Shown here: one piece after another, positions 11,628-18,456 of the stretch
Layout of the letters: each line of letters opens with the position of its first letter
How positions within the stretch are numbered: position 1 is the first letter of the stretch
NCBI GenBank assembly: GCA_965197525.1
Contig: OZ240211.1
Location: forward strand, 1,248,001 to 1,312,000
Source of the DNA: Nitrosopumilus sp.
GTDB lineage: Archaea > Thermoproteota > Nitrososphaeria > Nitrososphaerales > Nitrosopumilaceae
Length of the DNA: 64,000 nt
Direction: 5' to 3'
Position numbers and translations under genes: made by a program
Notes under the pieces: model-generated
What the model was told of the DNA's origin: nothing
Seen by the model: the letters and a program-made list of their open reading frames with translations, nothing else
The model's database searches: none

Positions 11628-12431
11628 CTAGTCTTCTTTGTTAGAGTTTTTCAATTGCTTGCCAAAAGATGCACCCAAGATGGGATTAATGAGATACGGA
11701 AATGTGTGTTTTAACCATACAGCGGCCCTGACAACGGATGGGACTATGATCTCAAGTCTTGGTGAACCAGCGGCCCGGATGATTGCTTTGGCTACAGTTC
11801 TAGAACTAAGAGATGTAGGAGAATATTTTGGCATCTTTGCAAACGAGGGATGTTCAAAAAAATTTGTTCGAACCATTATTGGGCTAACGACTGTAATCCC
11901 AACTTTAGTTCCCTTTAATTCGTGTTTGAGGCCTTCTGAGAACCCCAGCATTGCAAACTTTGATGCACAATAAGAAGCAATACCAGGTAATCCAAAGCTT
12001 GCTGCAACTGACGCAACGTTAACTATGTGACCTGAATCTCTTTTGAGCATGAATGGAAGAATATTCTTGGTACAGTATACCATTCCAAAATAATTCGTAT
12101 CCATCTGTGATTCTATCTCATCAATGGTAAGATCAGATATAGAACCGTATATTGCAAAACCTGCATTATTTACCAAAACATCAACAGAGTCAAATTTCTC
12201 AAATACTGTATCTGTCATTGCTTTTACTTGATCACGTTTCGAGACATCACACGGACATGCCAGCACAGTTACACCAAATTTTGATAGTTCTTTTGCAAGT
12301 AGATTTAGTTTATCCTCTCCCCGCGCCACAAGAACAAGATTACTTCCTTGCTTTGCGAATTCGACTGCGGTCTCTTTGCCGATTCCAGAGGATGCACCAG
12401 TAATCAGGACTAGCTTGTCTTTAAAATCCAT
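11628..12431 (-). CDS. Short-chain dehydrogenase/reductase
   Basis: ITGASSGIG, NNAG, YCASK. Start adjusted to ATG 12431 (MDFKDKLVLI). Confidence 0.92.
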   Translation of the reverse strand: MDFKDKLVLITGASSGIGKETAVEFAKQGSNLVLVARGEDKLNLLAKELSKFGVTVLACPCDVSKRDQVKAMTDTVFEKFDSVDVLVNNAGFAIYGSISDLTIDEIESQMDTNYFGMVYCTKNILPFMLKRDSGHIVNVASVAASFGLPGIASYCASKFAMLGFSEGLKHELKGTKVGITVVSPIMVRTNFFEHPSFAKMPKYSPTSLSSRTVAKAIIRAAGSPRLEIIVPSVVRAAVWLKHTFPYLINPILGASFGKQLKNSNKED

Positions 12432-12500
12432 ACAACTGAGGAATAGTTTTTGTGATAAAGCAGTTTCGCTAGATAGATGCTTGTTTTTGTATAAAATAAC

Positions 12501-12547
12501 TATGCTGTTCAATATTTGGGACTTTTCAACTGCCTGTTAAGTTAGGG
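12501..12547 (+). repeat. 47-bp transposon/MITE-like terminal repeat, copy A (uninterrupted)
   Basis: tatgctgttcaatatttgggacttttcaactgcctgttaagttaggg; 38/47 identical to reconstituted copy B; a further sub-repeat (tcaagttaggg) follows at ~12556-12566. Confidence 0.75.
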
Positions 12548-12615
12548 TTTTTTTATCAAGTTAGGGATTTTTATGCTGTTCAATCTCAGGCGTTTTTCAA
12601 TTACCTGTTAAGTTA

Positions 12616-12854
12616 TCTATGTGCGCTCTTTTTAAAGGTTTTCTGAGTTTGTACGTGTTTGAGTACAGCATCAGCTAGGAACAAGGTTTCACTTAGAAGA
12701 TGGTCGGATACATATCTATACGAGCTCTGTCACTCAGCACCATTCTTCATCCATTCATTAGGGTTAATCGCAGTTAGAATCCGAGCATGAAAACTCACAC
12801 TTAACATCGCGCAAATCCCTAACCATAATCTCCTGACATTCAGTCATATGCAAT
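12616..12854 (-). ncRNA. Putative bridge/seek RNA of the IS1111-type element
   Basis: Non-coding 3' end with two predicted stem-loops (TTAGGG/CCCTAA; GAAGA-TGGT/ACCA-TCTTC) whose loops contain target- and donor-matching segments. Folded by eye; boundaries approximate. Confidence 0.65.
12629..12636 (-). promoter_or_regulatory. Outward-facing TATA box in the IS right end (candidate circle-junction promoter)
   Basis: Minus strand agaaaacc-TTTAAAAA; in the circular form its first T is 30 nt upstream of GTG 14177. Confidence 0.5.
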
Positions 12855-14177
12855 TCATTTTTTTGCAAGTTGTTTCACACTCTTTACACTTTTCTTACTC
12901 TTTACACTTTTCTTATCCTTTATATTCTTCAAATGCTTTGCTCTTGCATTTCTACATGATTCTGTACGTTGTCTTTGGCATTCTGCAAAGGTAATTCGTT
13001 TTTTTAGCATCCAAAATATAATACGCAACATCTTAGCCGCCGTTGCAACGATGGCCTTGGCTGTTCCTCGCTTTCTTGCAACACGTTTGTAAAACTCTGT
13101 CAAGACAGTCGTCTCTTTTGCATGTATCCTGTGTGCAAGTGCAGCCTCTGTGAGAACCCATCGCACAGTAGCGTTACCGGCATGTGTTATCCTTCCATGA
13201 TGTGTTATTCCTGCAGAGTTTCTCACTGATGGAGCCAATCCAATGTATGATACTAGCTTGTCAGGATCCTCGAATCTGCTGATATCATCTATCTCTGATG
13301 CGATGGCAAGTGCTGTAAACTTGCCTACTCCGGGTATTGACATGAGAATTTGTACATATTCGTTGTTTCGTACCATGTCATGTATCTTAAGATTGGCTCT
13401 GCCTATGCGCTCATCAAAGGATTTTATGCATTCCAAATACTCTTCTATCCTCCAATCCTTCAGTCTGCGCAACTCTCTGTTAAATGCAGGTGTAAATGTG
13501 GGTCCTGGAATCTTGATTGACTCTTGGAGCAGTATGCCATGGATCATGTTCTTTATCTGAGTTCTGTTCTGCACCATTCTTGTGCGAAAGCGCACCACCC
13601 GTTTCTCCTCGACGGTTTTTGGAGGCGAGACATATGATGCATGGATGTAACCTCCTCTGAGCAGGTCTGCTAGTGCATGCGCATCAAACCTGTCAGTCTT
13701 CTTTTTGGATTTTGCTATGAGGCGTGTACGATAGGGATTTGACAGGGTCACATCCAGTCCCAGATCCACTGCAAGTTTTTTGTATATACCATACCACACA
13801 GATGACGATTCCAATACATATTTGGCATTTTTTGGAAATGCTGAAAACTCGTACTCAATTATCTTAAAGTCATTTTCAATCCTCTCGTTCATCAAAAGAT
13901 TTCCATTCTGATCTACTGCCGCAACCTGAAGAAATTTTTTGTGCAGATCCAACCCAAAGAACACTTTTTGTTCTTCTTTTGTTTTTTTGATTCTTGTAGT
14001 GGAAGATCTTGTTGCAGCCATCACCTGCACGCCCGATCTCTGTTTCATAACAGTATTATTTTTGAGGGTAATCTGTTTCTTGGCATTTCCTGCCTTTTTT
14101 ACCTTCTTTGCACTAAGTATCTTGGAATCTGCGGGTTTATGCTTTGTACCATCTAAATTTCTTTGTCTGTTTCGCAC
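12855..14177 (-). CDS. IS110-family DEDD recombinase/transposase
   Basis: FFGLDLHKK (D), VLESS (E), KKTDRFDAHALA (D,D), SIPGVGKFTA, SYIGLAPSVRNSAG (catalytic Ser loop), GNATVRWVL. Start is GTG 14177 or ATG 14048/14021. Confidence 0.95.
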   Translation of the reverse strand: MRNRQRNLDGTKHKPADSKILSAKKVKKAGNAKKQITLKNNTVMKQRSGVQVMAATRSSTTRIKKTKEEQKVFFGLDLHKKFLQVAAVDQNGNLLMNERIENDFKIIEYEFSAFPKNAKYVLESSSVWYGIYKKLAVDLGLDVTLSNPYRTRLIAKSKKKTDRFDAHALADLLRGGYIHASYVSPPKTVEEKRVVRFRTRMVQNRTQIKNMIHGILLQESIKIPGPTFTPAFNRELRRLKDWRIEEYLECIKSFDERIGRANLKIHDMVRNNEYVQILMSIPGVGKFTALAIASEIDDISRFEDPDKLVSYIGLAPSVRNSAGITHHGRITHAGNATVRWVLTEAALAHRIHAKETTVLTEFYKRVARKRGTAKAIVATAAKMLRIIFWMLKKRITFAECQRQRTESCRNARAKHLKNIKDKKSVKSKKSVKSVKQLAKK

Positions 14178-14345
14178 ATATGGTTAGGTATTTTTCAATG
14201 AATATTAATTTTAGTGGTTACAGTCTTGTAAACTTGAACATTCTTGAATGTTTGCAAATCTGTAACAACTTAAACACAAAACCAACCTAATTTAACAGCT
14301 AGTTGAAAACAACTAAAGATTTAACAGTGTAGAAAATCATACTAC

Positions 14346-16857: not shown

Positions 16858-18456
16858 ATGAGGACAAAAATAACATCGCTGCTGATAATGGCAACTCTTA
16901 TTGCCTTTGCACCATCATCAAATGCATATGCAGATTTCACACCAGATCCGCCAAAACCAGATCAAGAATTTAATTTAATTGGGGCTGGAGCAACGTTTCC
17001 GTTCCCTCTAATTGATTTATGGAGAGTTGAATACAAAAATGTATACGACAATGTAAATCTAAACTATCAGTCAATTGGAAGTGGCGGCGGTATCAAACAG
17101 CATATTGAAAGAACTGTAAACTTTGCAGCATCAGATAAACCGATGAGTGAATCAGAACGAGAATTGGTTCCAGGCACACTACACATCCCCGAATCAATTG
17201 GCGGAGTAGTGTTAGTGTACAACATTCCAGAAGTTCCTGACAGAGGACTCAAACTAACAGCGGATGCTATTGCAAGTATGTTCTTAGGGGATATTACAAG
17301 ATGGGACGATCCTGTAATAGCTGCAGAAAATCCGGGATTGAATCTTCCAGATAAGGAGATCGTCACAGCACATAGATCAGATGGTTCTGGGACAACGTTC
17401 ATCTTTACTGACTATCTAAGTGTCGTCAGTCCAACATGGGATGAACAGATAGGTAAAGGAAAATCGGTACCATGGCCTTCAGGTCTTGCTGCTGCAGGAA
17501 ATGAAGGTGTTGCGGGAATTATAAAATCTACAGAATACGCAATTGGATATGTTGAACTAGCTTATGCGTTCCAAACTGGAATGACTTATGCATCAGTGCA
17601 GAATGCTGAGAAAAGTGCATTTATCGAGCCTACATTAGACAGTATCTCTGCAGCATCAAGTGGTGTATCTGATAGTTTGCCTGCCGCAGAGGAGAGTTGG
17701 GTTGATGTATCACTTATCAATGCACCCGGAGCTGAATCCTATCCCATTGCTAGTTTTACATATCTACTTGTGTACGACGATCTAGAACCGGTAACCAGAG
17801 ATAGAGAACAGGCAAAAGCTGTAATCCACTTGATCAATTGGATGATCACTGATGGTCAGAGATATTCACCAAGTCTATTGTATGTTCCATTAACAGACAG
17901 TATTATAAAATTGGGCCAAGATGGACTATCCACAATAACCTATGGAGGTGAGCCATTGATAGGAGCAGAATCATCATCAAATGATTCAGAGATGATGATG
18001 GAGAAAGACGACGAGAGCGATACAGGAACACCACAAACACCTAAAGAATCAGACGGTGATTCTGCTGATAATAGTGGCGGCTGTCTAATAGCTACTGCTA
18101 CGTTTGGTTCTGAACTAGCACCACAAGTTCAACAATTACGAGAGATACGTGATAATCAACTGATGAGTACAAATTCGGGCATAATGTTCATGTCTGGATT
18201 TAACCAGCTATACTACGCATTCTCACCAACAGTTGCTGACATAGAAAGAGAGAATCCGATAGTCAAAGAGACTGTAAAGATTGCAATCACTCCATTACTG
18301 TCTTCATTAGTAATAATGGAGAATGCCCAAACCGAATCTGAAGTTTTGGGATATGGAATAAGTGTAATCCTAATGAATGTTGGATTGTATCTAGCAGCAC
18401 CGGCCGTGTTACTCTATGGAATAGGTAAGACAATAAAGAAGAGAAGCGACTCTTAA
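16858..18456 (+). CDS. pstS: Phosphate ABC transporter substrate-binding protein with CFI-box-CTERM-type tail
   Basis: GAGATFP, YQSIGSGGG, HRSDGSGTT, GNEGVA; C-terminal GGCLIATATFGSELAPQVQQLREIRD plus TM. Confidence 0.95.
   Translation: MRTKITSLLIMATLIAFAPSSNAYADFTPDPPKPDQEFNLIGAGATFPFPLIDLWRVEYKNVYDNVNLNYQSIGSGGGIKQHIERTVNFAASDKPMSESERELVPGTLHIPESIGGVVLVYNIPEVPDRGLKLTADAIASMFLGDITRWDDPVIAAENPGLNLPDKEIVTAHRSDGSGTTFIFTDYLSVVSPTWDEQIGKGKSVPWPSGLAAAGNEGVAGIIKSTEYAIGYVELAYAFQTGMTYASVQNAEKSAFIEPTLDSISAASSGVSDSLPAAEESWVDVSLINAPGAESYPIASFTYLLVYDDLEPVTRDREQAKAVIHLINWMITDGQRYSPSLLYVPLTDSIIKLGQDGLSTITYGGEPLIGAESSSNDSEMMMEKDDESDTGTPQTPKESDGDSADNSGGCLIATATFGSELAPQVQQLREIRDNQLMSTNSGIMFMSGFNQLYYAFSPTVADIERENPIVKETVKIAITPLLSSLVIMENAQTESEVLGYGISVILMNVGLYLAAPAVLLYGIGKTIKKRSDS

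Follow-up and report, generated by a model that had tools for sequence, protein, structure and literature searches.

Positions 12612-14186 of the window (the whole 64,000-nt stretch of Nitrosopumilus sp. DNA that was analysed) are a single intact IS110-family insertion sequence with one gene and an IS1111-like organisation, a likeness of layout (3' non-coding end, inverted repeat and guide order). The host genome encodes archaeal amoA, the gene of an ammonia oxidiser. The best explanation of the element, which we regard as highly probable, is that a two-loop guide RNA from its 3' end directs its DEDD/Ser recombinase. The element is a well-supported archaeal example of a guide-RNA mechanism previously demonstrated in bacteria. 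This reading is supported by the domains and catalytic residues of the transposase, by an RNA fold established through covariation and by four guides that all covary with the flanks or with the element's own ends. The original prediction, made from the letters of this copy, was of an RNA-guided recombinase with readable guides in an ammonia-oxidising archaeon, and both the fold and the guide covariation support it. Every sequence feature that this prediction named was found at its given position. The features of the element are listed in Table 1.

Table 1. Features of the insertion sequence and its neighbourhood, in window coordinates.
Feature	Position	Strand	Remarks
Uninterrupted paralogous target site, CCTGTTAAGTTAGG	12533-12546		70 bp from the insertion
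GTTA junction repeat, right-end side	12612-12615		Family-wide core TA at 12614-12615
Right-end terminus, ...CGCACATAGA before the core	12616-12627	-	Holds one inverted-repeat arm (12618-12625) and the left-donor sequence that the donor guide matches
TATA-like box, TTTAAAAA	12629-12636	-	15 nt from the right end; conserved
Bridge/seek RNA core, ~132 nt	12700-12831	-	Covariance-model match, 129.4 bits, highest of all matches to the model
P1	12817-12823 with 12757-12763	-	Comparative fold
P2	12808-12811 with 12769-12772	-	Comparative fold
P3 hairpin	12783-12796	-	Comparative fold
P4	12748-12752 with 12706-12710	-	Comparative fold
P5 hairpin	12721-12736	-	Comparative fold
Right target guide, UGUUAAGU, 5' side of target loop	12799-12806	-	Complementary to the right flank
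Left target guide, UUCUAAC, 3' side of target loop	12773-12779	-	Same sense as left flank, core and first two element bases
Right donor guide, AUGGU, 5' side of donor loop	12739-12743	-	Complementary to left-end bases 1-5 (ACCAT)
Left donor guide, AUAGAUA, 3' side of donor loop	12713-12719	-	Reads in the sense of the right-end terminus, core TA included
Transposase/recombinase ORF, 440 aa, GTG start	12855-14177	-	DEDD RuvC-like domain and Transposase_20 with Ser loop
Left-end box2, ATGGTAC on the minus strand	14146-14152	-	Left-end bases +33 to +39, within D-G-T codons
Left-end terminus	14173-14186	-	Inverted-repeat arm 14173-14180; GTG 14175-14177; ACCAT 14180-14184; core TA 14185-14186

The transposase had been described as intact, with a DEDD domain and a Ser loop. 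Both Pfam domains were found above their curated cut-offs (DEDD_Tnp_IS110, PF01548, E 6.6e-20; Transposase_20, PF02371, E 1.3e-24), and the catalytic residues are conserved, D77, E123, D162, D165, G313, P316 and S321 being identical in at least 19 of 20 homologs. The Ser loop, GLAPSVRNSAG, aligns with the region around the catalytic Ser in the structures of IS621 and ISCro4. The ORF (440 aa; homologs 367-421 aa) begins with a basic N-terminal extension of ~70 aa, and its nearest annotated relatives are haloarchaeal IS110-family proteins, with 36-37% identity over ~74% of the query. The predicted subterminal inverted repeat is present as 8 bp (TATGTGCG at 12618-12625 and CGCACATA at 14173-14180) and is kept across the family as CACATA/TATGTG. 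A GTTA core had also been proposed. It is found at 12612-12615 and 14183-14186, but the four-base GTTA/TAAC identity is limited to the subfamily of the window copy; TA stands at both junctions in nearly all copies for which both ends were found and is the core of the family. As in IS110-type insertions, donor and target share a short core, and insertion is specific for site and orientation, without conventional target duplication.

The long non-coding region 3' of the transposase, where the guides had been placed, was confirmed: 243 nt lie downstream of the ORF compared to 9 nt upstream. In the comparative fold, the RNA read from this region has two internal loops, target and donor, between five helices. 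Among 14 diverged sequences, 94.6% of cells were paired compared to 30-47% in slid controls, with compensatory changes in 13 of the 24 pairs. Extending the alignment to 83 distinct sequences gave 95.0% of cells paired, with slid controls at 32-46%, and 18 compensatory pairs. Column variability was highest in the target loop (1.5-1.8 bits), and the donor loop (0.57-0.66 bits) and the stems were conserved. Pairing of the guides within stems had been named as grounds for abandoning the original prediction; in the consensus fold the guides are unpaired, lying in internal loops bounded by covariation-supported helices. The folding check proposed at the time was informative in its comparative form alone. 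The single-sequence minimum-energy fold was not more stable than shuffles (z -0.25) and paired both target guides with each other, because the guides overlap on the core; only the comparative fold opened the internal loop and left the guides within it. An Rfam scan at permissive E-values returned no relevant family, its three chance-level matches (E 3.5-9.3) all lying outside the 3' non-coding end. Among the genomes searched, matches to the RNA model came from Nitrosopumilaceae only. When the model was run against three haloarchaeal loci, it gave one weak match (E 0.063), upstream of the transposase gene. From the sequences we infer that the RNA is produced and that the transposase binds it.

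Across ~90 related copies, the target and donor loops change together with the insertion sites and with the ends of the element itself. The two target-loop guides were found where the original prediction had placed them, at 12799-12806 and 12772-12779, and their matches exceed chance. On the minus-strand RNA the latter interval reads UUCUAAC(U), and the guide corresponds to acCTAAC with one G-U wobble. The inferred empty target was likewise backed by a paralogous site: CCTGTTAAGTTAGG occurs at one other place in the genome, within the adjacent unit of a ~70-bp tandem intergenic repeat. The window copy has as its natural target a short intergenic repeat of REP-like type (CCTAAC/TTAACAGG). The proposed comparison of guides and targets across copies revealed that diverged copies carry altered guides together with correspondingly altered targets, in 33 guide families from 20 genomes. 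A fixed register of the right target guide to the core TA was tried and dropped; the guide was scored register-free because its register shifts by 1-2 bases between subfamilies. The mean exact run was 6.33 nt in cognate guide/flank pairs compared to 3.53 nt in non-cognate pairs on the right, and 6.04 compared to 4.05 nt on the left. A run of at least 8 nt, as in the window copy, was seen in 15 of 4348 non-cognate pairs (0.35%). When the right guides were permuted by family (33 families), 0 of 20000 permutations reached the observed fit, and the left guides (18 families) gave 61 of 108 matches compared to 26 expected, again with 0 of 20000; kinship among the sequences overstates the significance of both figures. 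Within the genome, the guides of the three copies differ exactly where their flanks differ, copy c2 having the guide UGUAAAGU and the flank TTTACA, and copy c3 the guide AUAAAAGG and the flank CCTTTTAT. The left guide of c3 has no match to its left flank past the core. Uninterrupted sites, one for the window copy and six for the guide pair of c2, also favour the guide-RNA reading.

In the donor loop, AUAGAUA had been proposed as one guide and was found to covary with the right end. Its partner, which had been missed, is AUGGU at 12739-12743 and follows the left end. Where the right end reads ATAGATA, ATGGATA or GGGTA, the 3' side of the loop reads AUAGAUA, AUGGAUA or AUGGGUA, respectively, and the left-end variants recur as complements in the 5' side of the loop (ACTAT/AUAGU, ATCAT/AUGAU and GTCAT/AUGAC). 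The predicted circle junction would read ...CACATAGA-TA-ACCATATGTG... Three other candidate contacts were rejected. AUGGUUAG, in the 5' strand of P1, resembles the left-end junction and was considered as the right donor guide, but it is paired within P1 with compensatory changes and, by eye, does not follow the left-end variants. The dinucleotide that follows the left donor guide was considered for a match with the right flank after exchange, but gave no consistent pattern by eye. The tail past P4 (GACCAUC), considered as a partner of box2 or of the right donor guide, suited the window subfamily and not the others, also by eye.

The three full copies in the genome are 87-89% identical and therefore indicate no recent burst there; they are distinct lineages, not recent duplicates. 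The transposase of copy c3 is frameshifted, four solo 3'-end fragments are present, and six uninterrupted sites that fit the guide pair of copy c2 stay unoccupied. These observations would suit a genuine bridge-RNA element that is now a silent relic, either as the window copy or perhaps as the whole family in this genome, with guides that record the last insertion. We consider this possible but doubtful. The window copy has an intact ORF with every catalytic residue present, two intact ends, an intact TATA-like box and the RNA with the top score of the model. In related genomes, up to ~20 near-identical copies occupy different sites, which indicates that the family has recently been active elsewhere. 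Circle formation by the window copy and its current activity are predictions from its sequence. Logan contigs of public runs were broken at the element repeat and contained no circle-junction joint; they are uninformative on circles or expression.

It is much less probable that the matches at the 3' end act as DNA, whether as protein sites, hairpins or captured target copies for synapsis, and not as an RNA guide. Box2 is a same-sense DNA copy of the loop sequence elsewhere in the element, and the guide-coding DNA has been struck by a nested insertion, both of which would fit such a role. However, the five helices are maintained by G-C to A-U compensation and by frequent G-U pairs, which occur on one strand only, a pattern of RNA and not of duplex DNA or protein sites. 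Furthermore, each loop matches one DNA strand with its 5' side and the other strand with its 3' side, as in the RNA-DNA pairing of homologous enzymes established by biochemical and structural work (PMC11208160, PMC11187229, PMC13626964). Chance resemblance in AT-rich sequence would be helped by ~40% G+C, by guides of 7-8 nt and by a target that is partly self-complementary, so that the two target guides can also pair together, but given the outcome of the permutations for each target guide, the rarity of runs of at least 8 nt in non-cognate pairs and the mirroring of the point differences between c1 and c2 in their flanks, it can practically be discounted.

In the preferred reading, the DEDD/Ser recombinase would act with an RNA of ~130-140 nt that would be transcribed from the non-coding 3' end. 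Its two modules are of like build: in each, an outer stem is followed by an internal loop and then by a hairpin cap. In the target module, the 5' side would pair with top-strand bases right of the core, and the 3' side with bottom-strand bases left of it and on through TA and two more bases. The donor module would read the circle junction through its donor-binding loop. Recombination of the excised circle with a target that shares the common TA core (TAAC in the subfamily) would then yield insertion in a single orientation, without true duplication. In the window subfamily, the right target guide and the right donor guide end before the TA core. Because these right guides stop short of the core, unlike in the IS621 rule, the crossover could be at TA or at AC within TAAC. 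By analogy with IS1111 elements, for which transposase expression from a circle-junction promoter has been proposed (PMC11187229), the mRNA and the guide RNA would probably be transcribed together, from a promoter that forms when the two ends join in the circle.

The TATA-like box, which occupies the same alignment columns in 17 of 18 diverged elements, may be an archaeal junction promoter that also reads outward. In the circle, transcription from it would begin at the GTG that lies 8 nt inside the left end and yield a leaderless transposase mRNA, and in the integrated element it would read outward into host DNA. Box2 lies ~30-42 bp inside the left end. Over 7-10 nt, its top strand has the same sequence as the 5' strand of the donor loop, and the two covary family-wide; box2 follows this strand more closely than the left-end terminus does. 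Box2 could be an extra donor-recognition contact, or it could serve RNA-guided autorepression, with the ribonucleoprotein on the template strand just past the transcription start. We tentatively raise the possibility that the family carries two features undescribed for IS110/IS1111, the RNA-complementary site at box2 and an archaeal-type junction promoter.

The element resembles the IS1111 group in having a single DEDD/Ser transposase followed by a long non-coding end, subterminal inverted repeats (8 bp here, 7-17 bp in the group), natural retargeting through loop replacement and insertion into short repeats. The order of the target matches in the RNA is also the same, the top-strand match lying 5' of the bottom-strand match as in the seekRNAs of ISEc11, ISPa11 and ISKpn4 (PMC11187229, Siddiquee et al. 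2024). Unlike in that group, the ORF has 440 aa and a basic N-terminal extension (330-350 aa, ~340, in the group), the donor loop is a simple internal loop like the target loop and not multi-loop, and the RNA is without a match to any curated Rfam model. The host is archaeal, and any junction promoter must here be of the TATA/TFB type, with a probable leaderless GTG start. With IS621 and ISCro4 (pairing rules of the IS621 bridge RNA, Durrant et al. 2024, PMC11208160; structures 8WT6 and 9T56) the element shares an alignable catalytic Ser loop and one target and one donor internal loop, of which the target is hypervariable and the donor conserved. In both systems, loops of either kind recognise the bottom strand left of a common core dinucleotide and the top strand right of it. 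In contrast, the RNA lies 3' of the gene here and 5' in IS621 and ISCro4, the guide order within the loops is reversed, and the core is TA (TAAC in the subfamily) instead of CT. The right-side guides of the subfamily leave the core uncovered, the left target guide enters the left end by two bases, and sequence similarity is detectable in the C-terminal domain only (E 7e-6 to 6e-5). The haloarchaeal IS110-family elements of Natrinema, Halorubrum and Halanaeroarchaeum plasmids are likewise archaeal and encode the closest annotated proteins, but their RNA, if homologous, would lie at the opposite end, as the weak match at one of three loci suggests.

The RNA-guided recombinases of IS110/IS1111 elements form a new class of programmable enzymes for genome writing. 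To our knowledge, all such systems tested to date are bacterial. The family described here adds a compact example from archaea, namely mesophilic ammonia oxidisers of low G+C, with all four guides readable from the sequence, and its at least 33 naturally retargeted right-guide variants form a ready specificity data set. The finding also bears on proposals that tie IS110 recombinases to archaeal Nop5/box C/D guide-RNA proteins (bioRxiv 10.1101/2024.06.21.599552). It raises the question of how such elements are expressed via archaeal promoters. In Nitrosopumilaceae, the elements also target REP-like intergenic repeats, which parallels the targeting of REP sequences in bacteria.

Read along the minus strand, the IS110/IS1111-type element c1 consists of flank-TA, the left end ACCATATGTGCG, the ORF, a 243-nt non-coding end, the right end CGCACATAGA and TA-flank. 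Both the DEDD_Tnp_IS110 and Transposase_20 domains are present in its only long ORF. In a protein alignment of 20 homologs, with identities to the c1 transposase from ~30% upwards, D77, E123, D162, D165 and the G313-x2-P316-x4-S321 loop were identical in at least 19. Aligned with the solved IS621 and ISCro4 recombinases, this loop falls on their catalytic-serine region. Haloarchaeal IS110-family proteins, at 36-37% identity, are the nearest annotated relatives, which makes any clade placement of the transposase tentative. The host genome, a single 2.21-Mb contig encoding archaeal amoA, carries three full copies, namely c1, c2 (89% identity) and c3 (87%, with a frameshifted gene).

Features of c1, its copies and related loci (G000:C1 is the host contig; other coordinates without prefix are window positions)
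Feature	Coordinates	Strand	Remark
Transposase ORF	12855-14177	minus	440 aa from GTG
GTG start	14175-14177	minus	
box2	14146-14152	minus	
P1	12817-12823 with 12757-12763	minus	helix
P2	12808-12811 with 12769-12772	minus	helix
P3 hairpin	12783-12796	minus	helix
P4	12748-12752 with 12706-12710	minus	helix
P5 hairpin	12721-12736	minus	helix
Right donor guide	12739-12743	minus	AUGGU
TATA-like box	12629-12636	minus	
Short-chain dehydrogenase ORF	11628-12512	minus	
Target-repeat sequence	12486-12611, 14187-14215; G000:C1 95518, 593633, 1581660, 1581737, 1599196, 1599235		
Intact adjoining repeat unit	12533-12546		
c3	G000:C1:367746-369298		
Solo 3'-end pieces	G000:C1:1838227-1838409, 1832961-1832995, 982986-983021, 18294-18448		no transposase gene
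Composite remnant	G000:C1:1591546-1591754 (L004), 2193069-2193281 (L006)		two copies
Second IS110 family	G000:C1:712369, 1421403, 1599429, 1995906		385-aa ORFs
RNA-model match, haloarchaeal relative	L130:740-868		E 0.063

Aligned 3' ends of 18 diverged elements gave a consensus fold with two modules. When a 14-sequence alignment was scored on a hand-specified structure, 94.6% of cells were paired, compared to 30-47% in controls with partners slid by 1-3 columns, and compensatory changes were found in 13 of the 24 pairs. A covariance model derived from this alignment had eight matches in the host genome and 95 at E <=0.001 spread over 20 of the 151 family genomes. A search under stricter filters of 131 genomes, representing 33 further families in the phylum, gave zero matches. 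A second alignment of 95 matches (83 distinct), which adds by hand three G039 and nine G177 loci and omits some matches at E <=0.001, was 95.0% paired with 18 compensatory pairs, values that are biased towards the model to which it was fitted. The guide sequences of the original prediction are not stem-paired but sit in the consensus fold's two internal loops. Column variability was highest in the target loop (1.5-1.8 bits), while the donor loop was among the lowest (0.57-0.66 bits).

The target guides were predicted to match c1's own insertion site, and they vary with the flanks both in the host copies and across guide families. The right target guides UGUUAAGU (c1), UGUAAAGU (c2) and AUAAAAGG (c3) face the right flanks ACTTAACA, ACTTTACA and CCTTTTAT, respectively. 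On the left, UUCUAAC faces acCTAAC in c1 and GAGCCUAAC faces gcaCCTAAC in c2; the c3 guide matches the core alone. Covariation is already evident among the three copies. We extracted loops and flanks from ~80 additional loci and permuted the flanks 20000 times per side, using one representative per guide family. On the right, exact runs averaged 6.33 nt in cognate and 3.53 nt in non-cognate pairs; the left-side means were 6.04 and 4.05 nt. The observed fit was reached by 0/20000 permutations on the right (33 families) and on the left (18 families; 61/108 matches vs 26 expected), counts that overstate significance because related elements are not independent. The effect is large and is seen even as single-base differences between close copies, such as five guide variants in one genome.

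Donor guides vary with the element ends. AUAGAUA, proposed as a donor guide from c1 alone, is supported as such, as the 3' side of the donor loop follows the right-end variants (AUAGAUA with ATAGATA, AUGGAUA with ATGGATA, AUGGGUA with TGGGTA). The guide reported as not confidently identified can now be placed on the 5' side, where AUGGU, AUAGU, AUGAU and AUGAC accompany left ends starting ACCAT, ACTAT, ATCAT and GTCAT. Throughout the element family, right ends always terminate in ...GATA and left ends open with TA|ACCATATGTG, so the common core is TA. The GTTA core claimed earlier is correct for the c1 subfamily, whose targets have AC after TA and so read TAAC over four bases, or GTTA on the opposite (plus) strand, but does not hold family-wide. 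The left target guide extends through the core and two more bases, a pair that tends to agree with bases 1 and 2 of the left end (in 78-83% of families), and right-side guides in the c1 subfamily end just before TA. On this register, the crossover may lie at either TA or AC within TAAC.

A further site, box2, lies 30-42 bp inside the left end within the N-terminal codons, with equivalents at loci L049-L128. Over 7-10 nt it repeats, in the same sense, the donor loop's 5' strand (AUGGU + 2-5 nt), with which it covaries; its variants are ATGGTAC, ATGGTGC, ATGGTATT, ATAGTAAT, AAGGTTGT, AGATAGCAT and ATGGCAA. Among 19 families, 0/20000 permutations reached the observed fit. The encoded residues vary (T, A, I, N, C, S, K), so the constraint is on nucleic acid rather than protein. 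The template strand here would be complementary to the predicted bridge/seek RNA, and the site may serve as an extra donor contact, in autoregulation or as a left-end hairpin.

Of 18 diverged elements, 17 have a TATA-like box (TTTAAAAA or TTTATAAA) in constant alignment columns, at 15 nt from the right end. Counting on from this box in the excised circle, the G of GTG (left-end position 8) would be base 23, which is the usual archaeal TATA-to-start distance. This spacing suggests an archaeal-type promoter at the circle junction, from which the right-end box would direct a leaderless transposase mRNA starting at GTG. All 16 elements of the c1 clade have a frame already open at the left-end terminus (PYV...), with N-terminal extensions differing in length and sequence. 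Box and open frame fit the model put forward for IS1111 elements, of co-transcription from a promoter at the junction (PMC11187229), carried over to archaeal signals. In integrated c1, the box points outward to a short-chain dehydrogenase ORF on the same strand.

Insertion sites belong to a REP-like short intergenic repeat, CCTAACTT(T/A)ACAG, with a conserved tail ending ...aatattgaacag. Beside c1 the repeat is duplicated in tandem; the element occupies a unit of this tandem repeat (~70 bp), and six uninterrupted sites match the c2 guide pair. In a different context, contigs of two other samples show identical right-flank bases beside a related right end. At locus L020 (G039:C20), unlike the other insertions, ~30 bp of flank (…ttattcgttttgaaatttcaggtataatg) is found on both sides, perhaps as a tandem repeat of the target or through an unusual duplication.

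Of 201 sampled family genomes, 33 encode protein homologs. Copy c3 is decaying: its transposase gene is broken into two overlapping frames and its left target guide mismatches the left flank. The host genome also has one further relative (~70% DNA identity), a second, distant IS110 family (~30% protein identity) and several solo 3'-end pieces, in which the donor loop may or may not accompany the right end and which are either decay products or possibly non-autonomous derivatives. In the composite remnant, whose two copies have ~150 bp of upstream sequence in common, GTTA marks the joint between a left-end-like terminus in inverted orientation (…tttcgcacatac) and the interior of an older copy's right-target-guide DNA. 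The arrangement resembles a nested insertion, in inverted orientation, into the DNA encoding a guide; such DNA necessarily mimics half a target. The sole RNA-model match in three loci of the haloarchaeal relatives, on the Halanaeroarchaeum plasmid NZ_CP008875.1, is weak and lies upstream of the transposase gene, hinting at a related RNA at the opposite element end.

The published IS1111 study states that the family is present in archaea (PMC11187229), and 662 archaeal IS110-family recombinases have been catalogued (bioRxiv 10.1101/2024.06.21.599552); our literature search found no paper on the Nitrosopumilaceae element family of c1 or its RNA. Agreement in every sequence-level property that could be tested gives good support to the view that c1 works like the published IS1111 seekRNA and IS621 bridge RNA systems. 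Beyond this known mechanism, two side observations, box2 and the archaeal-type TATA-like box, could be new.
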